Program-made: the position numbers and the translations under genes | Shown here: piece by piece, positions 2,071 through 14,788 of the stretch | How positions within the stretch are numbered: position 1 is the stretch's first letter | Layout: each line of letters begins with the position of its first letter | Assembly (NCBI GenBank): GCA_021498095.1 | Contig: JAIZWK010000001.1 | Location: forward strand, 2,400,001-2,432,000 | DNA length: 32,000 nucleotides | Direction of reading: 5' to 3' | Origin: Candidatus Harpocratesius repetitus | Lineage (GTDB): Archaea > Asgardarchaeota > Lokiarchaeia > Sigyniarchaeales > Promethearchaeaceae | Notes under the pieces: model-generated | Told to the model about the DNA's origin: nothing | Databases searched by the model: none | What the model saw: the letters and a program-made list of their open reading frames with translations, nothing else

Positions 2071-2520
2071 TTAGAGGATTGAAAGTTTTCCGATGATATA
2101 TCTTCGGTGTTGAAAAAAATATATAATATTTTCTGTTTTTTTACTTATTATCAATAAAATAACCCAATTAATATTTCCATAGATTGGATTTTTGATCATA
2201 GTTTTAATTGACAATTTGTCAATAAATGAAGCAGAATCAGGACCATGAGGATGCGTATGCCATTCCCCAAGATAATCTGTATCTGGATTTCGCTTAATAG
2301 ATTCAATTAATTCAGGATAAATGTGCTCTGTGGATCTAAAAACACCAAATGGTGATTGAGAGATTGGATTTTCATCCTCGATAATATCTGTTATACGATA
2401 TAATTCATTATTAATTTTTTTTCCTACTAAGATTCCACAACGTTCTTTTTTGTAATTTTCATACTTTACATCTCTAAAAAATCGATTATATAATTTCTCT
2501 TCAATTTCAACTTCGATCAT
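2071..2520 (-). CDS. cap3: JAB/MPN+ metallo-isopeptidase, CBASS Cap3-like
   Basis: ERCGILVG (catalytic E) and YLGEWHTHPHGPDSASFID (HxH...S..D). ATG at 2520 overlaps the end of the E2-E1 gene; the track start at 2529 is a GTG. Confidence 0.9.
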   Translation of the reverse strand: MIEVEIEEKLYNRFFRDVKYENYKKERCGILVGKKINNELYRITDIIEDENPISQSPFGVFRSTEHIYPELIESIKRNPDTDYLGEWHTHPHGPDSASFIDKLSIKTMIKNPIYGNINWVILLIISKKTENIIYFFQHRRYIIGKLSIL

Positions 2521-4180
2521 TTTCACCACAAATCGGACATTCTTGCCATTTCGAAAAATTTTGAATTTTGATCATATTTGGTTCTTCAAATATCCAACCT
2601 TGGTAATTTCCTACTAAAAAATGATCATAATCGACCGGTTGAAAGAAATTCTGAAGATTTATTTTTTCAGCGAGTGTTTGGAATGCGAATCGTACAATCT
2701 TGTTTGCAATTTCTTTAATATCTAAATTAATTCCTGGAATTCCCGATTGGTGATATAAATCTTTTTGATGTTGTTCAAAAACCATACTGGGAAATTTGTC
2801 TGGATAAATATCTATTTGGTGATTAATGCAGTTAAGACATGGAGAGCCATCCTTTACTCGAAATATTCTTCCGAAACGGGCATTTTTCAAGCAAGTCCCA
2901 AATATCAAAGGTACATTATTCATTACACAAACTTCATTTAATTCATATTCATCCAATTCATGATCTATGGTAGAAATGACAAGATCGGAATCTTTTAAAT
3001 GAGTAAAGAACTCACTACGCATCATTGGATTAAATGGGGATCCCTTATATGCAGAAACTGAAACTTTGGGAGATAGAAAATGAGTAAATTCTTTCATGGC
3101 AAAAGCTTTTGGGAGACCTAAATAGGGAAGTGGCATGAAATTTCGCATGACGTTTTCAGGTTTGTATATATCAGGATCATATATTACAATATTCTGAATT
3201 CCATTGTGAATTAGTTCTTCATAGACTTTTGAACCCAAGGAACCTAATCCGATTAAAATAATTTTTATTCTTTTTATATTCGAAAATTGAGATTCTTCAA
3301 TATTTTTCTGCCGTTTATACAAAAGATCATAAAATCCCTGATCAGAATCAATAGTTGAATAGAAATAATCACTTAACCTAAAATTTCTATTCCAATGGAA
3401 GAATATAAGAGGAAATTTATTTTTAATTTTAGAACATATCAATAAATCGTCACTAAGTTCATTATTGATAAAAATATCATAAGAATCTAATAAAAGGTTA
3501 ATATTTTCACTCTTTTGAGAGACAATTCTTTCAATAAAAGTTTCATAATTTCCATGAGATAATCTTACGATTTTTAATGGTCTTTTTCTCAATTCATTAA
3601 ATTTTTGAGATTTTTCATCAATAAAAAACCCATAGATTATTTGGAAAGGAAGAGTTGAGAATTCTTCAATAGAAAAAGCATGATAATATATTATATCGAT
3701 GTTTTCATTATAAATTCTATCATATATTCTTGGATTGATAAAATATTTTTCTTTGACTGCATAATCGTCAAGATTATAATTAATTGACGTATGTTCTTCG
3801 GATAATTTTCCAGTATATTTTAAATCAATATAATTCTTAAATTTCTTTAAAACCATATCAAGTCGATAGGAATCTGTCCACGCGGATTCGCCACTGTCTC
3901 TCGGAAAAAGACATATACTAAAATCTTGGAAATAATGACCTTTCCAGAAATCAGTAATTGCTAATTTAGAGTAATTTTCATTAGTATAACAAAAAAATTT
4001 GGGAGGAAACGCAGGATATAATGGATGATAAACTATATCAAAAAAAAATTGATGAGATCCATATTTATAATTACCTCGCCATGCTCTCAAGATTGATTTG
4101 TATTCTAGTGAAAATTCATCATTTTCCTCTAGAAATTGTTTAATAACGTCTTGATCTTCTTCAAAAACTATATTATCCAT
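2507..4180 (-). CDS. cap2: E2-E1 (UBC-like + ThiF-like) fusion, CBASS Cap2-like
   Basis: N-terminal E2 motifs LYPAFPPKF, GHYFQDFSICLF (Cys codon 3911-3913) and downstream W. C-terminal ThiF motifs IILIGLGSLGS, VIYDPD, ENVMRN and two CxxC (PCLNC, ECPIC). Lies between a CD-NTase and a JAB gene. Confidence 0.9.
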   Translation of the reverse strand: MDNIVFEEDQDVIKQFLEENDEFSLEYKSILRAWRGNYKYGSHQFFFDIVYHPLYPAFPPKFFCYTNENYSKLAITDFWKGHYFQDFSICLFPRDSGESAWTDSYRLDMVLKKFKNYIDLKYTGKLSEEHTSINYNLDDYAVKEKYFINPRIYDRIYNENIDIIYYHAFSIEEFSTLPFQIIYGFFIDEKSQKFNELRKRPLKIVRLSHGNYETFIERIVSQKSENINLLLDSYDIFINNELSDDLLICSKIKNKFPLIFFHWNRNFRLSDYFYSTIDSDQGFYDLLYKRQKNIEESQFSNIKRIKIILIGLGSLGSKVYEELIHNGIQNIVIYDPDIYKPENVMRNFMPLPYLGLPKAFAMKEFTHFLSPKVSVSAYKGSPFNPMMRSEFFTHLKDSDLVISTIDHELDEYELNEVCVMNNVPLIFGTCLKNARFGRIFRVKDGSPCLNCINHQIDIYPDKFPSMVFEQHQKDLYHQSGIPGINLDIKEIANKIVRFAFQTLAEKINLQNFFQPVDYDHFLVGNYQGWIFEEPNMIKIQNFSKWQECPICGENDRS

Positions 4181-4192
4181 CTTATAACCCTG

Positions 4193-5062
4193 TTATGCAA
4201 ATCGAGTTCCCGGAGAATCAGGTGATAGACGTGATTTTCTATTTCTGTTCTGATTGCGATAATTTGAATGAAAATCTGCTGATTTTTGGCGGAATATCTC
4301 TTTCCAACCTTCAATAATATCTAAATTTTGAGATAAAGCCCAAGATGCTGCGTCTTTACACTTTTTTTTTTCATAAGAAGTTGCTACATCTGCAATATTA
4401 TTAGATGAATTTGCAGGATCTTCAATTCGACATGTATCAATTGACGTTTCTAAGAATTTAAAAATTTTTTTTAATCCCTCATCAATGCTAATGTATGTAT
4501 CTTGAATTATTTCTATAGAAATCAATTCAATTAAAAAGCTTGGAATATCGATATTATTACGTACTTTCCATAATTTCATCAATTTTAAGAGATCTCTTCT
4601 ACGAAAATCACGAATCACCTTTATATGAGTCTTAACATTTGTTTTTAATGGACTGTCTTCTTTAGATCTATAAATCCAAGCATTGTCTTCATTTGAGCTC
4701 GATCTTTTTGCTGGAACAAGATCGATATGATAACCTTCACGTTTATTTATTCTCAAGGCAACATTTTTTTGTATAATGGACTGTTCTTTTCCCCGAATAA
4801 ATTTTAACACTTCAAAATATATTTCCCTTAGAGATTTTTGTTCTTCAGATGGAAAATACAATAATAAGTCCATATCATATGATTCTCGGATCATTGTTTT
4901 TTTTCCATACGAACCACCCCAATAATAGGTTGGTGTTTTTAGATTCTCTATTGAATTAATGATTCCTTCGTATTTTTCCCGATCATTTTGCATTTCCTTT
5001 TTAAAATTATCGGGAATTTTCTGTTGAATGATTAATTCCTTCAAATATTCAGTTATTGTCAT
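4193..5062 (-). CDS. CD-NTase (cGAS/DncV-like, SMODS) paralogue 1, with disordered C-terminal tail ending PGTRFA
   Basis: GGSYGKKTMIRESYDMDL (GS...DxD), YHIDLVP (third Asp), LMKLWK, EDPANSSNNIA (OAS/CD-NTase-type C-terminal motif); AAGGAG upstream; 12 bp before the E2-E1 gene. Confidence 0.9.
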   Translation of the reverse strand: MTITEYLKELIIQQKIPDNFKKEMQNDREKYEGIINSIENLKTPTYYWGGSYGKKTMIRESYDMDLLLYFPSEEQKSLREIYFEVLKFIRGKEQSIIQKNVALRINKREGYHIDLVPAKRSSSNEDNAWIYRSKEDSPLKTNVKTHIKVIRDFRRRDLLKLMKLWKVRNNIDIPSFLIELISIEIIQDTYISIDEGLKKIFKFLETSIDTCRIEDPANSSNNIADVATSYEKKKCKDAASWALSQNLDIIEGWKEIFRQKSADFHSNYRNQNRNRKSRLSPDSPGTRFA

Positions 5063-5100
5063 TTAAAATTCTCCTTATGGTCATTAACTAATTATACTAA
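5063..5100 (-). promoter_or_regulatory. Upstream region of CD-NTase 1: AAGGAG RBS plus TAGTTAATG element shared with paralogue 2
   Basis: + strand CATTAACTA at 5082-5090 and 6138-6146, each 20 bp from the respective ATG (5062, 6118). Confidence 0.5.
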
Positions 5101-5201
5101 TTTATATTTAAATATACAGTAAAGAGAAAAAGTAAATTAATTTAAATGTGAAACAACCAGACAGATCGATCAGAATTGATTAGAGATTATCTTTACTTTT
5201 T

Positions 5202-6118
5202 TTAAAAAAACCTTTTTAATAATTTAATACCCAGTATTTCTGCTCCAACTTTTAGAGCGAATTTGAAAAAATCATTATATCTCGTATTCTCATATTCCGG
5301 TTGATTATGTTCGATTTTAGCAAGTGGTTGATCTTTTTTTCGAAATACTTCCTTTCAACCTTCAATAGTCTGTAAATTCAAAGATAAACACCATTCTGCA
5401 ATATTTTTTGCCTTTTGCTTCTCAATAGGATCAGATACTTCATCTGCTACGATGTTGTTCGAAGCATTAGCTGGATCAGGAATATTTCATGATTCAATTC
5501 GACTCGCTATAAATTGGAATACATTAATTAAGCCATCTTCCAACCTGATTCTTTCATCTTGATTCATATTGATAGTAATAATTTCAACTAAAAAACTCGG
5601 AATATCAATATTGTTTCTATATTTCCACAATTTAACTATTTTTAATAGGTCTCTTCTCCCAAAATCACGTACAATTTGAATTTGTTTCTCTACAATTGTA
5701 GTTAATCTTTGTTTTTCCTGAGATTTATATAGATATGCCATTGATTCGTTTGTACTTGATCTTTTCGCAGGTACAATGTCAATATGATATCCTTCACGTT
5801 TTTCAATTCTAATAGCAATATTCTTTTGATATGCATTAGGTTCAACGAAAAGTATATAATCTTTAACAATCATATAAATCTCTTCCAAAAGATGAGGATC
5901 ATCAAAAGGAAAGTTGCATAAAATATCAATATCATATGAACATTTAATCAGTGTTTTTTTCCATATGATCCCCCCCAATAATAACTAGGACGAGATAATT
6001 CTTTGATTTGATTATTTAAAATTTCAAAATAGTCTCGATCTTGACGCATTTCTTTTTGTTCTTTTTTGCTGATTTTTTATATTTTTACTAGTTCTTTTAG
6101 ATAATCGGTAATTGCCAT
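5202..6118 (-). pseudogene. CD-NTase paralogue 2, tandem duplicate of paralogue 1, inactivated
   Basis: Manual translation from ATG 6118: MAITDYLKELVKI* (TAA at codon 14); 1-nt loss in the A-run of GSYGKK (A7 vs A8 in paralogue 1); TGA at 5487-5489; TGG>TGA in IEG*KEVF; frame ends ...GAEILGIKLLKRFF* at 5202. Track ORF 5487-5978 is its middle fragment. Confidence 0.9.
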
Positions 6119-6199
6119 TTCAAATCATCTAATTAGCCATTAACTATATATAATAATCGTTCTTTAAAAATATCATCATTAAACAAAGAGAAAATATTC
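6119..6199. promoter_or_regulatory. 81-bp divergent promoter region between CD-NTase 2 and the HNH-SAVED gene
   Basis: Palindromic TATATATA at 6145-6152 (27 bp from ATG 6118) and TTTAAAAA about 30-37 bp upstream of ATG 6200. Confidence 0.4.
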
Positions 6200-7351
6200 A
6201 TGTCAAAATATCCAACTCCTGCTACTAAGCTTAAAATTACAGCCGATCATGGTGGAAAATGTGCGCTGTGTGGTTTAGGAGGAAAAAAGGTTTATACCAA
6301 TTCAAAAGAAGAAAACCAGTTGGATTCATTTAATATTGGACAATTTGCTCACATTTATTCTGAAAATGAAAAAGGACCGCGCTATGATAAGAAGATTCCA
6401 GAGTCATTTCTTGCTTCTAAAGAAAATTTCTTGCTCTTATGTACAAATCATCATAATTATATTGATCAAAATGTGAAAAAGTTTCCCGCTAAAAAATTGA
6501 AAAAAATTCGAGAAAATCATGTTGGAAATGTAAGAAAACGTTTGGATTTGAAGGTAATAGAAAGAGTGATTATTATCTTGTTAAGGGATGACTACTTTGG
6601 AGGATTGAACACCAGTACCATTCAAAATACTCTTTCTGAAAGTGAAGTAGTTGTTAATTATTTAGATTTTCGAACGCAAACCCAAAATTCATCTGAAATT
6701 CCATGGCAAGAAGGTTTTCAATATTATACTAATAAATGGAATGAGTTTAAGACAGATTTCTTTGAAGATTTGAAATCCTCGATAGACTGTTTTCATATTT
6801 ACGGTATCACTCAAATTCCCTATGTATTCTTTTTTGGATTGTTTTTCAATGATACCCCAAAATTATTTGCTCATCAATGGAATCGAGAAAAAAATAAATG
6901 GGAAGGTTTTTCTGAAACGGCTCAAAATGATGTTTTCACATCCTCAATAGAAATTCACGATACAAAGGATATAATTCTAAAAATAGAATTATCGTCAAAA
7001 ATCAATAACAAAATAATTGAAAAATTAGGCTTGAATCTGAAAAATCAAGCCTCCCTTCAAGTAGAAGATCCTTCTCGAACTTGGTTAAAATCAATTAACC
7101 AAACAGAATCATTCTTAAATCATTACAGGAATTTGATGGATGAAATTAAAGAACGATTACCAGAATCGGAAATTCATCTTTTTTATGCCGGACCTGTTCC
7201 ACCTTTATTCCATATGGCTTCTGCTTATAATCCCCGAATGGATCGACCAATAAATATTTATTATTATTTTGTCAATCCTGAAACTAAACTCTCAGAATAC
7301 AAATTTGTATTTAATTCTGTAGAGATCATGCAAAAATACAATTTTCTTTAG
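6200..7351 (+). CDS. cap5: HNH endonuclease-SAVED effector, CBASS Cap5-like
   Basis: GGKCALCG...IGQFAHIYS...GPRY...NFLLLCTNHHNYID (Zn-HNH); C-terminal SAVED-type IHLFYAGPVP; flanked by CD-NTases. Confidence 0.88.
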   Translation: MSKYPTPATKLKITADHGGKCALCGLGGKKVYTNSKEENQLDSFNIGQFAHIYSENEKGPRYDKKIPESFLASKENFLLLCTNHHNYIDQNVKKFPAKKLKKIRENHVGNVRKRLDLKVIERVIIILLRDDYFGGLNTSTIQNTLSESEVVVNYLDFRTQTQNSSEIPWQEGFQYYTNKWNEFKTDFFEDLKSSIDCFHIYGITQIPYVFFFGLFFNDTPKLFAHQWNREKNKWEGFSETAQNDVFTSSIEIHDTKDIILKIELSSKINNKIIEKLGLNLKNQASLQVEDPSRTWLKSINQTESFLNHYRNLMDEIKERLPESEIHLFYAGPVPPLFHMASAYNPRMDRPINIYYYFVNPETKLSEYKFVFNSVEIMQKYNFL

Positions 7352-7370
7352 AGTAGCAAATCTCCAATTC

Positions 7371-8138
7371 TCATCTCTGTTTCTTAAAGATCTCACCCCA
7401 ATATGTGCGATTTAATGCTTGATATGCTTTCTGCTCAATCTCCTTTTTTTCTCTGGAAGTTAAATTATCAGTCACAATATTCTGTTTATTTGCGGGATCA
7501 TAATATTCTCGATCGCAAATATTTCGAGCGATATATTCTAAACATGTTTCTAATTGGATAGAAAGAGAAGTTCTTGTTATATTCCAACAAGCTAAATGAA
7601 CCATGATTTCGAGTAAGAATGTAGAGATAGGAACGTTTTTCCGGAATTTCCAGAGTTTTAGCAGACGAATTACATCTCTTCGATTATATTTCTCAATTTC
7701 ATTGATATGTCGATTTAAACTGGTTCGTAAATATTGTTCCGTTTCAGAATTATAGAGATAAGAATAATCCGGATCGTGGGAATCTTGAACAGATGGCACA
7801 ATATCCACATGAAACGTTTTATTGTATGGCAAACACCATGCCACTTTCTTCTTAATTATTTTATTCCATTCTAAATGAAGTGCATCTTCAACTTGATAAA
7901 AAATCTTTTTTATATCCCCAAAATTAGGTTCCCAGATGAGAAACATATCTAAATCATGATATTCTTTAATCCAAGTATTTTTCTTGAATGATCCAGCCAT
8001 AAACATACTTGGATGTCCGCCAATAGAGTCATTAATGCATCTTCTGATCCGATCTCGCAATTTTAACATACTATCAATTTGAGATTGAGCTGGGTGACTA
8101 TTTCTTAAAACCTTGTTGAGGAATTCTTCGTCATTCAT
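7371..8138 (-). CDS. CD-NTase paralogue 3 (255 aa, no C-terminal tail)
   Basis: AGSFKKNTWIKEYHDLDMF, FHVDIVP, LLKLWK, YDPANKQNIV; ends WGEIFKKQR. Confidence 0.88.
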   Translation of the reverse strand: MNDEEFLNKVLRNSHPAQSQIDSMLKLRDRIRRCINDSIGGHPSMFMAGSFKKNTWIKEYHDLDMFLIWEPNFGDIKKIFYQVEDALHLEWNKIIKKKVAWCLPYNKTFHVDIVPSVQDSHDPDYSYLYNSETEQYLRTSLNRHINEIEKYNRRDVIRLLKLWKFRKNVPISTFLLEIMVHLACWNITRTSLSIQLETCLEYIARNICDREYYDPANKQNIVTDNLTSREKKEIEQKAYQALNRTYWGEIFKKQR

Positions 8139-8304: not shown

Positions 8305-9426
8305 TCAAAGGTTTTGGAATACAAGACAATAATGATGGTGAACGTTAGAAATATAGGTAGTTGGATAACCCCAGATTCCCATAAATTTCTGATCCTGACA
8401 CCAAATAAATTCTTGTTTTAGAGATAAGTTCTTTCCAAGGATTTTAGCAAAATCCCAAGCGACTGGTCTCATATTACCTTCTTTATCGCGAATGTTTTGT
8501 AATATAATAATGAAATAACCTTCCTTTTCTACAATTTGAGAGATATTTGAGAATATTTCGCTTAAATTATTTAAATACTTATCATAATCATCAATATTAC
8601 CAAAATCCTTTTCATCATCGCTATATTTCTCATCAAAACCTTGTTCAACCCTCTGTTTTAAAGCAGATTTTACACCTCCTCTTGATGTTCCTAGCATATT
8701 CCAGTAAGGTGGTGATGTAACTACACATTTCATCTTAGGTAACTTCATTTCTTTCCATATTTTAACAGTATTTCGACAATCATCATTGATAACGATATAT
8801 TGTGTTTTTGACTCTTCTTTATTAAAAAATGAATCTAAAGTTTTTTGATTGTCAACAGAACGCTTTTGTGCATAAGAAGCGTATTCCGGATTTAATTCTA
8901 TGCCGAAACAATTTCTATCTAAATCTCTACAAGCAACTAAAGTCGAACCAATTCCAAGAAATGGATCAAAAACCCAATCACCTTCTTTTGAAAAAAATTC
9001 AATGAAATGTCGTGCAAGTGCAGGAGGATAACTTGCAGGATGATTTTTAATTTCTTTAGGAATATCTGAAGGTTTTCCATCTACTATAAGCCAACTCTTT
9101 GTATGTCTTAACCATTCTTTACCTGTTAGATTGTTTAAAGAGTTTCTTTCATCATATTCCCCTTTTTTTTCACATTTATATTGAATTTCTCTTGTTTCTT
9201 TAGCCAAAAGACGAAACAGTTTAGCACTATTAATAAAATCCCCTTTTTCAAAAAGTTTTCTAGTTTCATTTACTAAATCGAGTATTTCATTATTCTTTCT
9301 ATTAATTATATCTGAAGAATTGCTTTTAAAATTAGGATTTTTATCAATCTCATCAAGAATTTCTTTAGGAATAACCCATCTTTTTTGTTTTCCTTTCTTT
9401 TTAGAATTCAACTGGTTTTCACTCAT
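8305..9426 (-). CDS. DNA amino-methyltransferase (probably m4C), circularly permuted motif order
   Basis: HPASYPP, DPFLGIGST (motif I), GIELNPEY, then VTSPPY (motif IV); start overlaps the upstream gene's stop (ATGA, 9423-9426). Confidence 0.88.
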   Translation of the reverse strand: MSENQLNSKKKGKQKRWVIPKEILDEIDKNPNFKSNSSDIINRKNNEILDLVNETRKLFEKGDFINSAKLFRLLAKETREIQYKCEKKGEYDERNSLNNLTGKEWLRHTKSWLIVDGKPSDIPKEIKNHPASYPPALARHFIEFFSKEGDWVFDPFLGIGSTLVACRDLDRNCFGIELNPEYASYAQKRSVDNQKTLDSFFNKEESKTQYIVINDDCRNTVKIWKEMKLPKMKCVVTSPPYWNMLGTSRGGVKSALKQRVEQGFDEKYSDDEKDFGNIDDYDKYLNNLSEIFSNISQIVEKEGYFIIILQNIRDKEGNMRPVAWDFAKILGKNLSLKQEFIWCQDQKFMGIWGYPTTYISNVHHHYCLVFQNL

Positions 9427-11075
9427 AATTCATCCCATGTTTGTCCGCTAAAATAGACAATTCTTTTGTTTATTTGAATTTTTATAGAACTACATTTTTC
9501 TATCACATTTTTATCGACCAAATCTTGATAAATTGTGTCTTCTTCCGTCAATTGCATTGGTAAATCTTGAATTTTTATCGTTTTTCCAAAATTTTCATTA
9601 ATTTTTCTATATAAGGATATTTCTTCTGCACTTTTACTTGTCACAGGTATATATGTTGTTTCATTTAATTTTGATAGATATTCTTTTCCTTTTTCAGTAA
9701 TTCCTACTATGGATGTAATTTTGTACCCTCTACTTATAATTTCAATTGGATCAGATAAATTATTTGGTATTTTATCTATACTTTCGACATTATTGGATTT
9801 TTTCCACCCTTGTGTTTCAAGATCAATTAATCCGATTGTAAAAGCCCAACCAAACATCCTTCTTGTGAAATTGTTTACTCTTTTCTTGTATTTATTATAT
9901 GTGAGAGGAATATAATCTTTAGTTTTATTGTTCCAAATAATATATTTTTTTTGCAAAATTTTGTTAATTTCTTTAATCCTTTGTTTTTTATTCGGTATTT
10001 CCAATAATCTTTCAACTCCAATCAAAGCATTTCTTAAATTTTCAGGTGTTTCCTGCAAAGTAGTTAGAATATAAAAACCTAAAAGATATTGATGAATTGA
10101 AATATTATAACCTTTTTTTTCAAGCTCATTAAGAATCCAGAGCATGATGTAAAAGGGTCTAGCTTTCATATACATATATTCGGAATAATTTGTTAAATCT
10201 TGCTCACAATTAAAAATACCATAATTTACTATCGATTCAGTTAATAATCGTCGTCTTTCCTTTTCTTTTTGCGAGATATTTTCAAGAGATTCGTAATTAT
10301 TATCAATAAAATTTCCATCACAGATAATTTCCCCCTTATTTGTAATTTTATAAGAGTAATTAAATGTACCCCCTGATTCGCTTACTTCTCTCGTTTTAGA
10401 CACTAATCCAATATAATTGGCAAAATCAAGGGAATCCCTTATTTCTTCTTTTGAACCGCGCTTAGTCTTCGAAGATGCTCTTGGAATAAAACTTATGGGA
10501 ATATCATAAGTGATTTGTTTTAGTAGAGATAAATTACTTGATATATTACTTATGGTATTGTTATTCATACAAAAATGGGAAATTAATCTAAAAAATGCTT
10601 TAGATTCATATGCATTTTTAGGAAAATGCAAAAATGCAAGATTTACTCTTTTATCTGTGTTCTTTTGCCTATATCTTGGCATATATAGTACTTCAAAAGG
10701 ATTTGTATATTCAAAAGAATTAAATTTAAAATTATTAAAAAATTTACATATTTCAGAATATATAAACGGAGGAAGTGCATCTTTTTTAATAATTGTTTCA
10801 ATTGGAGTATAAATTCTACGAACTATTGCGAAATTTTGAGTTTCTTCTTCCCAACAAACAGCATACAAATATTCATAAGTCTTTGATCGAAGTTCTTTTC
10901 GAATTTCTTTTATTTTTTCGCTATTAATAATATTCGTTGATTTTGATATTACTTGTTCATTAAAATCATTCAATTGTATTATATTTCCATTAGTTGGAAA
11001 ACCCTTCTTTTCAAAAAATTTAATTAAATCATCAGAGGATTTTATCATTTTAAATTTTATTTCTCTCACCTTCAT
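9423..11075 (-). CDS. 550-aa hypothetical protein with repeated winged-helix-like segments; candidate DNA-specificity subunit
   Basis: Two helix-GL[VI]...IT.KG segments (DFANYIGLV...YKITNKG; FGWAFTIGLI...GITEKGKEYL) and RPFYIMLWIL, reminiscent of FokI/AlwI-type recognition domains; TAATG overlap with helicase gene; no PD-(D/E)xK or HNH motif recognised. Confidence 0.55.
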   Translation of the reverse strand: MKVREIKFKMIKSSDDLIKFFEKKGFPTNGNIIQLNDFNEQVISKSTNIINSEKIKEIRKELRSKTYEYLYAVCWEEETQNFAIVRRIYTPIETIIKKDALPPFIYSEICKFFNNFKFNSFEYTNPFEVLYMPRYRQKNTDKRVNLAFLHFPKNAYESKAFFRLISHFCMNNNTISNISSNLSLLKQITYDIPISFIPRASSKTKRGSKEEIRDSLDFANYIGLVSKTREVSESGGTFNYSYKITNKGEIICDGNFIDNNYESLENISQKEKERRRLLTESIVNYGIFNCEQDLTNYSEYMYMKARPFYIMLWILNELEKKGYNISIHQYLLGFYILTTLQETPENLRNALIGVERLLEIPNKKQRIKEINKILQKKYIIWNNKTKDYIPLTYNKYKKRVNNFTRRMFGWAFTIGLIDLETQGWKKSNNVESIDKIPNNLSDPIEIISRGYKITSIVGITEKGKEYLSKLNETTYIPVTSKSAEEISLYRKINENFGKTIKIQDLPMQLTEEDTIYQDLVDKNVIEKCSSIKIQINKRIVYFSGQTWDEL

Positions 11076-14000
11076 TATTTTCTAAAAATTATCATGGATT
11101 TCATTTCTAATTTAATATCATCATGCTTAAGTAATTTTGATGTGTATTGGGAAAATTTTTCGGTTTGATTTTCTAAAAACGCATCAAATTTTTGTATTTC
11201 CGAAAGAATTTTATATGGATTTGCAGGGGGATTTTTATTTTTATATTTTTCAATTAATTTATTTAAAATATCTCTATATTCATTAAGTATTATCTTATTC
11301 ATAGAAAATGAAAGGAAAAGATGGAATTTTTCCCATAATTTTTTCTGCGCTTGTTTTACTGATTCAATATTGGTAGTATTTAAGAAATCTGTCATTCTTG
11401 GATAAAAATACTTTTTCACTAAAGTGTTTAATTCCGTTTTTTTATTTTCGATTGATTTTTCTTTAACTGTATATTTCAAACTATACTTTTTTATGATTTC
11501 TTCTTTTTCACTTTTAAAAATCTTTTTAATTTTTTCTAGATCAAGATAATCTTGTTCGGATAGTTTTCTATCTTTATCTTCTTTATCTTCTTTATCAAAA
11601 TTAATTAAATCATAAATCTTGATAGATTCATCATTAAAGGAATAACTCTTCTTTATATTATAGTAGAAATTTTTTAAAAATTGTTCGGATTGTAAATAAG
11701 TAATAACTTTAGCATTGAGATCTGATTTAAAAATAGTAAAATATTTCTTTCGATATTTTGGAACGAACAGATCTCTAAGCTTAATACCAAAAACATCTGT
11801 CATTTTTATTAGGAATTTGTCTAAATTACTAAATCTTAGGGCAATATCTTCAGAATTTTCTTGTTGGAAAGATAGATCTGTAATCTTTTTTATTTTATTT
11901 ATAATTTCACACATGCTATCTCTTTGATTTTGTATTATATCTAATTGTTCTTCAAGTGTAAGAATACAATATTCAGTCCCTATTGCTAGGGCTATATTCT
12001 TTATTTTTGATTTGACTTTTGTTAAAAACCTTTCGAGAAATTCAATATTATTATCAGGAATGAAATTTGCGACAAATATATCCTTAATATTAGTAATTCG
12101 ATCAACTCTTCCAATTCTTTGAATCATTTTTACAGGATTCCAAGGAATATCATAATTAATAACCCAATCTGCTTCTGGGATATTGAACCCTTCGCTCAAT
12201 ACATCAGTAGAAATTAAAAACTGATTTTTTTTTTCCATTTTAAATAATTCTAAAACATTAAAACGCTCAGGTTTAGATAATGCTCCGGTTATCAATAAAG
12301 AATTTTCTATGTTATCATGTAGATAATGTGCAGTATCTGCATATTGAGTGAAAATTAGGAATTTAGTATCTGAATGTTTCAAATTGTATCCTTCAAATTT
12401 AATCAGTAATCCTGGATTCGAAAGGAATGTTTTTAACAAGAGTATTTTTTCATCAATTTTGAAAACATTTGATAGTTTCATTCTTTTTTCTTTATTAATT
12501 TCTTGCTGGAAGTTATTTTCTTTAAAAACTAAATAATTTAAGATATTTAGGATATAATCGTATTTATCAAGAATTTTATCAAAATCAGTTAATTTTTTAA
12601 TAGTATTTATAATTTTTTCCATTTTTTTCTTAAAGTTATCATTATTTTCTCTGATTTCTGATAAAATATTCTTATACCCGCTACCTAATATTAATTCTAT
12701 TAAAAATAATTCATTATCAATGAAATAATATATTTTATCATCTGAAATATTTTTAATATTAAATAGCATATTTTTAATTAAATTCAAATCGTAAAATATT
12801 TTAGAGATAACCATAGATAGTTCATCTTCATCTAATTTCAGCAATTCAATCCATTTTTCTGAGATTTGGTTCAAATCAAATTCTTCATTTTCATCTTCTT
12901 TTAAATTAATTAGAATTTTATCTAAAAGGGTCTTCTGTTCTAAAAATTTAATATTTCCATTATCAATATCTTCTTCTTTTTCTTTCTCGTCCTTGCTTTC
13001 ATGAATTCTATAATGAAAAGAAGAGTATATAAAAATTAAAATCGTCATTTCCGACAATAATAAGTTTGATATTGAAGTAAAAAAGGAATAGGGAGAACTT
13101 TCCAATCTTTTTGCTAAAAAAATGTAATAGAATGTGTGAAATTGAGTATCATCTTTTAATGGATCAACATGAGGTAAATTTAGGTCCACAATCATATCTC
13201 TAGTTTCTTTGAAGAGCGAAGAAAATGATGGATTTTGAATTTTGTATTCAAGAGGTTGTAAAATTGGATCTTTTATACTAACATCATTATTTTTTATTTG
13301 ATAATATTCTTTTTTCATCTTTTTCAAATCAAGTCTACTTGTTTGAACAAATAGTGCTTTTCTTATCTTTTTTATTTGTTCCTTTTGAGACAACATAATA
13401 TCTTGATTCATTAAGAGAAATGCTGAAAGTTCATCTTCATTTGTAATTTTCCTCATTGGATTCTCTATTTTTTTTACAAATTCTGATAATTGGTGATATT
13501 CAGCTTCAATATCATTCTGCTTAAATTGATTTTCATCATGGAATATTGATATGATATTATAGATATCTATATAGGAATTATTCATAGGGGTTGCTGTTAA
13601 TAAAATGAATTTCGTCCCAATTTTGGGAATTTTAATCAAATTTTTATAACGATTTGATGTATTGTTTCTAAAATTATGAACTTCATCTATTAAAACCACA
13701 TCATAATGTTTATTTATTTCAAAATCTGAAATTCCAAATGAATACATTGAAATAATATCGATTCGATGGTCTAAAGGTGATATTTGAAACTCTCTTAGAT
13801 AATCTTCCCATTGTTTAATAATCCCTGGTGGTAAAATTAATAAAATTTTTATTTCTTTATAGATCAAATAGTCTGCAAGCAATTTACAAGCGATATAACT
13901 CTTTCCAAGCCCCACTGAACTTGTAATCATAACTCCATTAAAATTCTTCAAAATTTCTTTAGCTCGTTGATAATCTACTTTCTGAAATGGCAATAATTCA

Positions 14001-14788
14001 ATTTTCTCTTCAAGTAAGTATTCTTTGTTCCAATCTAAAATTTGTTGGATTATGAATTTTTTTGGATGAAAATATTTCCATTCTACTTTTTTTTTTTTTT
14101 TTTTAAATTTCGGTGTTGATTCGATAATTCGCAAGATTTTATCATTATAGTCTTGTGAAGATTGCCACAATTCATGAAAATAATTTGTTAGCCACTGATT
14201 CTCTTCCTTAGAATTAAAAACGGCATTTAATTCCACATTAGTTCTTAAACCTGATGTAGATAAATTAGAAGAGCCGAAAATCCCTTTATCATCTAAAGTA
14301 CCACCAAATTCTTCAGGTAAAACCCTATGAAATAAATATAGTTTTGTATGAAGTTTAGATTGGTCAAAAATTTTCACTTTTATTATCCCATCTTGAATAT
14401 TTTCGTAAAATGAGATTAATCCATCAAAATTTTTATCTGATAATGAAATGATTTCATCTTTAATCTTAGAATACAAGGTTTTACTATTATACCTAGGAAT
14501 ATGAGAATATTTCAATGTCGATTTTGTAAGTTTATCGGTGTGATCTCCGATAATCAATAAAAATGGTGCTGAAGTTCCATAAAGTTCGATATAAGATTCA
14601 TTATCGATACGATTTAAATTGATTTTTTCATATATTTCATTATAACCGGATAAAAAAAAGAACCCAGTTGCAATTTTCACTTCTTTACAACCTTGTAAAT
14701 ATTTTTTTATCACATCCCCTAATTTGATTTTTCTATTATCGATAAAAGTTGGAATATCAATTAATTCAGAATTTACTTTTGAATTCAT
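11075..14788 (-). CDS. PLD-family nuclease fused to SF2 (SNF2-related) helicase/ATPase, 1237 aa
   Basis: LHTKLY and GSSNLSTSGLRTNVELN (PLD); SSVGLGKS (Walker A), LIDEVHNFRN, LLTATPMNN, IFTQYADTA, STDVLSEGFN, NYDIPWNPVKMIQRIGRVDR. Confidence 0.9.
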   Translation of the reverse strand: MNSKVNSELIDIPTFIDNRKIKLGDVIKKYLQGCKEVKIATGFFFLSGYNEIYEKINLNRIDNESYIELYGTSAPFLLIIGDHTDKLTKSTLKYSHIPRYNSKTLYSKIKDEIISLSDKNFDGLISFYENIQDGIIKVKIFDQSKLHTKLYLFHRVLPEEFGGTLDDKGIFGSSNLSTSGLRTNVELNAVFNSKEENQWLTNYFHELWQSSQDYNDKILRIIESTPKFKKKKKKVEWKYFHPKKFIIQQILDWNKEYLLEEKIELLPFQKVDYQRAKEILKNFNGVMITSSVGLGKSYIACKLLADYLIYKEIKILLILPPGIIKQWEDYLREFQISPLDHRIDIISMYSFGISDFEINKHYDVVLIDEVHNFRNNTSNRYKNLIKIPKIGTKFILLTATPMNNSYIDIYNIISIFHDENQFKQNDIEAEYHQLSEFVKKIENPMRKITNEDELSAFLLMNQDIMLSQKEQIKKIRKALFVQTSRLDLKKMKKEYYQIKNNDVSIKDPILQPLEYKIQNPSFSSLFKETRDMIVDLNLPHVDPLKDDTQFHTFYYIFLAKRLESSPYSFFTSISNLLLSEMTILIFIYSSFHYRIHESKDEKEKEEDIDNGNIKFLEQKTLLDKILINLKEDENEEFDLNQISEKWIELLKLDEDELSMVISKIFYDLNLIKNMLFNIKNISDDKIYYFIDNELFLIELILGSGYKNILSEIRENNDNFKKKMEKIINTIKKLTDFDKILDKYDYILNILNYLVFKENNFQQEINKEKRMKLSNVFKIDEKILLLKTFLSNPGLLIKFEGYNLKHSDTKFLIFTQYADTAHYLHDNIENSLLITGALSKPERFNVLELFKMEKKNQFLISTDVLSEGFNIPEADWVINYDIPWNPVKMIQRIGRVDRITNIKDIFVANFIPDNNIEFLERFLTKVKSKIKNIALAIGTEYCILTLEEQLDIIQNQRDSMCEIINKIKKITDLSFQQENSEDIALRFSNLDKFLIKMTDVFGIKLRDLFVPKYRKKYFTIFKSDLNAKVITYLQSEQFLKNFYYNIKKSYSFNDESIKIYDLINFDKEDKEDKDRKLSEQDYLDLEKIKKIFKSEKEEIIKKYSLKYTVKEKSIENKKTELNTLVKKYFYPRMTDFLNTTNIESVKQAQKKLWEKFHLFLSFSMNKIILNEYRDILNKLIEKYKNKNPPANPYKILSEIQKFDAFLENQTEKFSQYTSKLLKHDDIKLEMKSMIIFRK
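14087..14104 (-). repeat. In-frame A18 homopolymer (T18 on +) encoding KKKKKK between PLD and helicase domains
   Basis: 18 consecutive T at 14087-14104; codons about 229-234 (TPKFKKKKKKVEW). Confidence 0.9.

Follow-up and report, generated by a model that had tools for sequence, protein, structure and literature searches.

A CBASS locus with two intact cyclases and a single Cap5 effector in a Lokiarchaeon

A 32,000-nucleotide stretch of the genome of "Candidatus Harpocratesius repetitus" (GenBank assembly GCA_021498095.1, contig JAIZWK010000001.1, positions 2,400,001 to 2,432,000), here called the window, carries at its positions 2071 to 8138 an antiphage signaling system based on cyclic oligonucleotides (CBASS) in which two intact cyclase (CD-NTase) genes accompany one effector gene. 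CBASS normally comprises one cyclase, one effector, and optional regulators. In the window, one cyclase, CD-NTase1, has a C-terminal tail and is encoded with the E2-E1 fusion protein Cap2 and the isopeptidase Cap3; the other, CD-NTase3, is tail-less, and its gene converges on that of the HNH-SAVED effector Cap5. With a probability of about 0.6, we consider this arrangement to be a composite dual-input CBASS abortive-infection locus within an accessory defence island of a Lokiarchaeon, an interpretation built on sequence comparison. On this interpretation, Cap5 would take its signal from both cyclases, these would answer to different cues, and the system would protect against viruses. The locus appears to be a conserved, modular exception to the one-cyclase CBASS, with its cyclases under different control and with the lineage of CD-NTase3 never found alone.

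Recurrence of the cyclase pair with one Cap5

CD-NTase3 falls into a tight clade of the cyclase tree (support, 100/99), which we call the b lineage; in a set of 1.84 billion representatives, it makes up one cluster at 50% identity. Loci encoding b-lineage cyclases, defined by an identity of 43% or more to CD-NTase3, were collected by look-ups, genome searches, and a metagenome scan. About 17 distinct loci have enough flanking sequence, and every one of them contains one HNH-SAVED gene and a second cyclase gene; never in this set is the b-lineage cyclase the sole cyclase. The GS/DxD/D catalytic residues are retained in both members of every cyclase pair. A preliminary description of the locus, made from the sequence alone, had proposed a synteny search for further multi-cyclase loci, and the layout does occur in other genomes. 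What recurs is not one operon plus an extra gene: the recurring unit is a b-lineage cyclase, a second cyclase, and Cap5, and the type II genes are only one of three interchangeable modules.

The second cyclase belongs to one of three unrelated types. (i) The tailed type, accompanied by Cap2 and Cap3, is present in three loci, namely, the window, the closed genome of "Candidatus Lokiarchaeum ossiferum" B36 (CP163304.1; locus L002), and metagenome contig SDBV01012794.1 (L044), in which Cap5 and the type II module are divergently oriented and the b-lineage cyclase lies behind Cap5 on the same strand. (ii) A type designated a253 is found in about six loci (e.g., L005, L008, L046, L049, L051, and L060). 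(iii) A type designated a268 is found in about seven (e.g., L011, L029, L043, and L052 to L055). Partner types also exist as the sole cyclase beside Cap5, both in a canonical Cap5-CD-NTase-Cap2-Cap3 operon (L003) and in L037 and L062.

The b-lineage cyclases are 56 to 93% identical to one another and are combined with the three partner types and with three types of Cap5 (27 to 39% identical between types). The pairwise identities show modules that apparently recombine freely, the correlation of these identities between modules being descriptive only, as the loci are related. In L008 (5857-7038) and L005 (5933-7042), the cyclase pairs are alike (79% identity for the a253 cyclases and 81% for the b-lineage cyclases) and the Cap5 proteins are only 28% identical, which suggests that the effector was swapped under a constant cyclase pair. 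A pairing of two non-b cyclases with Cap5 occurs in L030, which derives from the same family as the genome studied here. A further arrangement was seen in a metagenome-assembled genome of the L. ossiferum genus (L033:181-3124), where Cap2 and Cap3 are followed by a convergently oriented, sequence-divergent short cyclase with 35% identity to CD-NTase3. This cyclase sits behind two genes (encoding 724 and 345 amino acids) without a PADLOC match. L033 may represent one more such composite, served by an unrecognised effector.

Composition and history of the locus

The open reading frames lie where the preliminary description had placed them, and the Pfam and PADLOC models agree with its gene identities (Table 1). 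The PADLOC check that it had proposed matched all named genes to CBASS models, and its proposal of a type II CBASS-like locus built around a Cap5 effector in an Asgard host is upheld. CD-NTase1, CD-NTase3, and the related pseudogene CD-NTase2 all fall in the PADLOC cyclase model PDLC00803. The NCBIfam matches are all below their own cutoffs, and neither Rfam nor tRNA scans gave a match in the window. Unlike the co-oriented, single-cyclase operon of type II CBASS, the locus has a divergently transcribed Cap5 gene, a second intact cyclase, and a pseudogene. The Cap3 gene shares 23 nucleotides with the end of the Cap2 gene.

Table 1. Features of the CBASS locus in window coordinates, with amino acid identity, synonymous divergence (dS), and ratio of nonsynonymous to synonymous divergence (dN/dS) relative to the L. 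ossiferum B36 counterparts
Feature	Position	Strand	Evidence	Identity to B36	dS	dN/dS
Cap3 (JAB/JAMM isopeptidase)	2071-2529	-	Pfam Prok-JAB 1.6e-11; PADLOC JAB 8.8e-21	66%	1.25	
Cap2 (E2-E1 fusion)	2507-4180	-	ThiF 7e-23; PADLOC E1-E2 5e-19	43%	1.5	
CD-NTase1, 289 amino acids, intact, tailed	4193-5062	-	PADLOC cyclase PDLC00803 1e-62	58%	1.6	
Promoter-like region of CD-NTase1	5063-5153	-	Aligns with B36 Cap5-cyclase intergenic region and with CD-NTase2 upstream region			
CD-NTase2 pseudogene	6118-5202	-	PDLC00803 2e-34 for largest open piece			
Divergent promoter region of Cap5 and cyclase operon, 81 bp	6119-6199	.	AT-rich TATA-like boxes on both strands			
Cap5 (HNH-SAVED)	6200-7351	+	SAVED 4e-24; HNH_2; PADLOC SAVED_HNH 1.2e-39	90%	0.52	0.10
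Spacer between convergent Cap5 and CD-NTase3 stop codons, 19 bp	7352-7370	.	12 bp in B36			
CD-NTase3, 255 amino acids, intact, tail-less, b lineage	7371-8138	-	SMODS 3e-8; PDLC00803 3.5e-58	84% (CD253)	0.52	0.16

Cap5 aligns over its full length with the Cap5 structure 7RWK (1.2e-18), also matches PDB entries 7RWM and 8FM1, and has the HNH residues (AHI...N...HH). It is the only effector of the locus and the only SAVED match in the genome, and CD-NTase1, CD-NTase2, and CD-NTase3 are the only cyclase genes in the genome. CD-NTase3 has the catalytic residues GS50, D62xD64, and D112 and stops directly after the core fold, without a tail. The best folds for its AlphaFold2 model (pLDDT, 92) are CdnD, CdnC, and CdnB, with TM scores of 0.78 to 0.82 at 13 to 17% identity. 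The best sequence match is CdnC (7.7e-6), and these likenesses do not amount to a clade assignment.

The B36 locus consists of a tail-less cyclase (CD253), Cap5 on the opposite strand, a tailed cyclase (CD292), Cap2, and Cap3, in this order and without a duplicate cyclase. In a sliding comparison, nucleotide identity to B36 is 84 to 92% over a stretch that begins about 8 bp upstream of the CD-NTase3 start and runs up to the start codon of Cap5. It drops abruptly to 58 to 61% over the divergent promoter, which bounds the Cap5 block; it is 75 to 82% in the CD-NTase2 core and at background level beyond 5320. One edge of the high-identity block is thus at the Cap5 start, and the other lies no more than about 10 bp from the CD-NTase3 start. 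Two other proteins serve as a yardstick against the L. ossiferum genus: ribosomal protein S3Ae, with 73% identity, and a PPDK-like enzyme, with 57%. Because CD-NTase3 and Cap5 have the same dS, the edges of the block are sharp, and the identity is above that of S3Ae, the two genes look like a laterally exchanged cyclase-effector pair, probably moved recently as a single two-gene cassette. Both are under purifying selection, as their dN/dS values show. By themselves they have the composition of a type I system (cyclase and effector, no ancillary genes) and are inherited as a unit. The type II genes have a history that is different from, and older than, that of this block. CD-NTase3, an intact, tail-less cyclase that appears to be differently regulated, is not an extra: its shared dS marks it as the gene most tightly linked to Cap5. 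An inversion of Cap5 through flanking inverted repeats was also considered and set aside, as no convincing repeats were found around the gene.

CD-NTase2 retains the GS/DxD/D catalytic residues, has a C-terminal tail that is unrelated or decayed, and carries four lesions: a TAA at 6079, a frameshift of -1 within the A7 run (5954-5960), a TGA at 5489, and a TGA at 5357. Each of the three stops is one transition away from the codon of the paralogues (Gln, an Arg/Cys position, and Trp), which points to decay and not to recoding. Use of TGA as a sense codon, to which the alignment of one TGA with Trp might lead, is ruled out by the TAA and the frameshift, and the neighbouring long reading frames are open under table 11. 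The earlier claim of three cyclases sharing one effector thus holds in that more than one cyclase accompanies a single effector, but only two are functional and CD-NTase2 is a dead relic.

In the cyclase tree, CD-NTase2 groups with the tailed B36 cyclase CD292 and with P0005 (support, 100/100), CD-NTase1 being outside, and its amino acid identity is 69% to CD292 versus 50% to CD-NTase1. A recent tandem duplication giving rise to CD-NTase1 and CD-NTase2 is ruled out by the tree and the 50% identity. A conserved cyclase promoter segment (TTTAAATAT...TAGTATAA.TAGTTAATG) is duplicated, the second copy lying upstream of CD-NTase1. In what would be the simplest history, the resident Cap2 and Cap3 genes were replaced by a divergent CD-NTase1-Cap2-Cap3 cassette with its own promoter copy, now downstream; the replacement would have left the resident tailed cyclase, CD-NTase2, without its tail, and it would then have decayed.

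CD-NTase1 has the catalytic residues GS51, D63xD65, and D114 (GS/DMD/HID) and about 30 additional C-terminal residues ending in ...SRLSPDSPGTRFA (...SPGTRFA), a motif almost unchanged in four homologues. Its AlphaFold2 model has a pLDDT of 87, with residues 274 to 289 below 50. The tail of Enterobacter cloacae CdnD in Cap2 structures ends in ...TGRFA (10.1101/2022.03.31.486616). As the GTRFA tail is conserved and resembles this sequence, CD-NTase1 bears a hallmark of a Cap2 substrate, and its disordered tail is predicted to be the target of Cap2 conjugation. The tailed cyclases of the sister clade end otherwise, in ...TRWGYKLKN (L003, 2056-2943, and P0007) or in ...PPRFG (L044, 2780-3583); the tails of L003 and P0007, which extend five residues past the Gly, may have to be trimmed before conjugation, perhaps by Cap3.

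Cap2 matches the PDB entries 7TO3/7TSQ (Cap2) and MoeB and has an invariant E2 cysteine (C90), a GxGxxG nucleotide-binding motif, and two CxxC pairs. Judged by sequence position only, an alignment of four orthologues has no cysteine between the two CxxC pairs that would correspond to the E1 crossover-loop cysteine (C548 in E. cloacae Cap2); Y476 is invariant in this region of Cap2 and three aligned orthologues. The missing residue suggests that transfer onto the E2 cysteine takes place directly from the adenylate. In E. cloacae Cap2, the crossover-loop cysteine is dispensable in vitro (10.1101/2022.03.31.486616). Cap3 has an intact JAMM motif (E...HTHPHGPDSASFID; E29...H-T-H-x7-S-xx-D), and its NCBIfam match (5e-10) is among those below cutoff.

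Proposed dual input and the alternatives

Given the conserved association of two catalytically intact cyclases with a single effector, the only SAVED protein of the genome, the most economical assumption is that they share Cap5. CD-NTase1, co-transcribed with Cap2 and Cap3, would follow the scheme of bacterial type II CBASS, in which conjugation by Cap2 primes the cyclase and deconjugation by Cap3 resets it. CD-NTase3, a minimal enzyme, travels with Cap5 as a cassette of two genes, which would amount to a type I unit whose genes converge; this cyclase would be regulated in some other way. Cap5 would cut DNA upon binding of a cyclic oligonucleotide by its SAVED domain. That the cyclases differ in their activation routes had already been proposed, and it is borne out by the tail and the Cap2 and Cap3 partners of CD-NTase1 and by the tail-less form of CD-NTase3.

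Several points weigh against dual input. SAVED domains are usually ligand-specific, and CD-NTase1 and CD-NTase3, with an identity of only about 29%, may differ in the nucleotide they make. Because Cap5 is swapped among three types under constant cyclases, a matching of ligands cannot be read from synteny. The surveyed loci are related, and the count of 17 out of 17 overstates their independence. Finally, a Cap2 that lacks the crossover-loop cysteine could mean that the conjugation step is altered or weakened.

Two alternatives concern the division of labor between the cyclases. Only one of them may be cognate to Cap5, in which case CD-NTase3 and Cap5 would act as a type I system and CD-NTase1-Cap2-Cap3 would be an effector-less remnant or turnover module, or the reverse. 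We regard this as rather unlikely. The evolutionary history that CD-NTase3 shares with Cap5, distinct from that of the type II module, fits such a scheme, as do the module turnover seen in the pseudogene and the cassette replacement and the missing cysteine of Cap2; yet CD-NTase1, Cap2, and Cap3 are intact, their motifs are conserved, the tail strongly so, and the combination is retained in three divergent loci (the window, L002, and L044). Moreover, canonical relatives pair the tailed cyclase clade with Cap5 (L003), and neither the locus nor the genome holds another effector. Alternatively, the cyclases could make one Cap5 signal jointly, as a hetero-oligomer or by sequential extension and cyclisation of an intermediate, and would then not be parallel sensors. 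The b lineage never occurs without a second cyclase, while the partner types do occur alone, which leaves room for a cooperative or auxiliary role; most loci also have their two cyclase genes adjacent and co-oriented, with gaps of 20 to 80 bp. However, a specific interface is hard to reconcile with partners of three unrelated types (30 to 40% identical), a polyphyly that argues against a fixed heteromer, and in the window and B36 Cap5 lies between the two cyclases, which belong to separate transcription units. With full sets of catalytic residues in both cyclases as well, we consider joint synthesis unlikely.

It is far less probable that CD-NTase3 belongs to the restriction-modification (RM)-like operon upstream, which encodes a PLD-helicase, a 550-amino-acid protein, and a methyltransferase, and that it guards this operon with Cap5 as a backup. 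The methyltransferase gene is co-oriented and lies 166 bp upstream of CD-NTase3, and B36 likewise has a co-oriented N6_N4 methyltransferase gene upstream of CD253, but the two methyltransferases are not orthologous (43% identity over 63 residues only). Upstream of the CD-NTase3 start codon, the similarity to B36 extends for only 8 bp, CD-NTase3 is separated from the methyltransferase gene by a T-run and TATA-like boxes, and none of the remaining b-lineage loci has a methyltransferase beside the cyclase. An assembly artefact, or a CD-NTase2 that is intact in the real genome, is scarcely conceivable. The closed B36 genome is an independent case of the same layout, and contigs from a public DNA run that matches the locus show zero differences, cover all four CD-NTase2 lesions, and bridge the Cap5/CD-NTase3 and Cap5/CD-NTase2 junctions, although this run may be the source sample and is thus not independent.

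Going beyond dual input in the window, we suggest tentatively, and at less than even odds, that the b lineage constitutes an undescribed CBASS class, a minimal auxiliary cyclase obligatorily paired with an interchangeable second cyclase on one Cap5. The pairing could add an input, stand in when viral inhibitors block the primary cyclase, or amplify the signal. If so, the three loci with a tailed partner would join type I and type II regulation on one effector and would be a prokaryotic counterpart of the animal cGLR-STING system, in which several nucleotidyltransferase sensors serve one nucleotide-gated receptor; the likeness is one of logic, an analogy only, and our comparisons reveal no phylogenetic link. 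If both cyclases feed Cap5, signal integration in prokaryotic immunity would have a simple natural example here, and the host could gain a route to broader sensing or to resistance against viral anti-CBASS proteins. Being small (five genes) and having in L. ossiferum B36 a relative that is cultured and carries a virus, the system can be tested directly.

The locus resembles the type II CBASS of E. cloacae (CdnD-Cap2-Cap3-Cap4) and Vibrio cholerae (CapV-DncV-Cap2-Cap3) in the disordered, Ala-ending cyclase tail, in the E2-E1 Cap2 and JAB Cap3 encoded directly downstream in one operon, and in the adjacent nucleotide-gated effector. It differs from them in that the effector has its own promoter on the opposite strand and is converged upon by a second, tail-less cyclase, in the lack of the E1 crossover-loop cysteine, in the archaeal host, and in its short cyclases (a core of about 250 amino acids), which are only 13 to 17% identical to solved CD-NTases. 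The type I CdnG-Cap5 systems of Asticcacaulis sp. and Lactococcus lactis (PDB 7RWK and 7RWM; PMC8568899) share the HNH-SAVED Cap5 effector and the composition of the CD-NTase3-Cap5 pair, whereas the cyclase here is not demonstrably of clade G, the genes are convergent and not in one operon, and the pair is always found with a further cyclase. The B36 system has the same gene order and orientation, with a highly similar Cap5 and b-lineage cyclase, but it has no pseudogene copy and a much more distant Cap2 (Table 1). For L. ossiferum B36 and P. syntrophicum, automated detection has reported a type II CBASS, and the accessible text of that preprint does not mention a second cyclase (10.64898/2026.02.13.705702). 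Our literature search found no description of a two-cyclase CBASS, which is not proof that none exists.

Host, distribution, and neighboring genes

The genome is a single 4.36-Mb contig with a GC content of 31%, and the GC content of the locus is host-like. The window encodes ribosomal protein S3Ae, and the nearest homologues are in L. ossiferum, a member of the same family, in keeping with the Asgard host surmised in the preliminary description. The CD-NTase family is present in 10 of 400 Asgard genomes, all of one order, and two genomes of the same genus lack it. In these two genomes, no DNA match to the CBASS block was found, and the flanks and the methyltransferase gene do match, on separate contigs. 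No viral contigs carrying the CD-NTase family were found. As outgroups, the family has plain pairs of an effector and a cyclase, whose contigs also carry genes of bacterial type (toxin-antitoxin, integrase, and the like).

A bearing of these short cyclases on the origin of eukaryotic OAS/cGAS-type immunity had also been suggested. For the B36 CBASS, a bacterial donor is inferred in the accessible part of the preprint (10.64898/2026.02.13.705702), and eukaryotic CD-NTases nest within the bacterial clades C and D (PMC10732462). Together with the restriction of the family to one order and its bacterial-type outgroups, this leaves the proposed link to eukaryotic cGAS/OAS not supported by our comparisons. 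What the locus documents is a module-by-module exchange of defence genes among Asgard lineages.

An RM-like/DrmD-like system (8305-14788) adjoins the CBASS locus, which is therefore part of an accessory defence island. Its overlapping genes encode a PLD-SNF2 helicase, the 550-amino-acid protein, which has no family match, and an N6_N4 methyltransferase, a set that is RM-like or DISARM-like. The helicase has DrmD-like and "phospholipase D anti-phage" NCBIfam matches, below cutoff. Among the three genes, only that of the methyltransferase has a DNA match in the same-genus genomes. The B36 locus is flanked by N6_N4 methyltransferase sequences that are not orthologous to the methyltransferase of the window, one of 304 amino acids upstream (L002:6620-7534) and a fragment of 104 amino acids downstream (L002:13049-13363).

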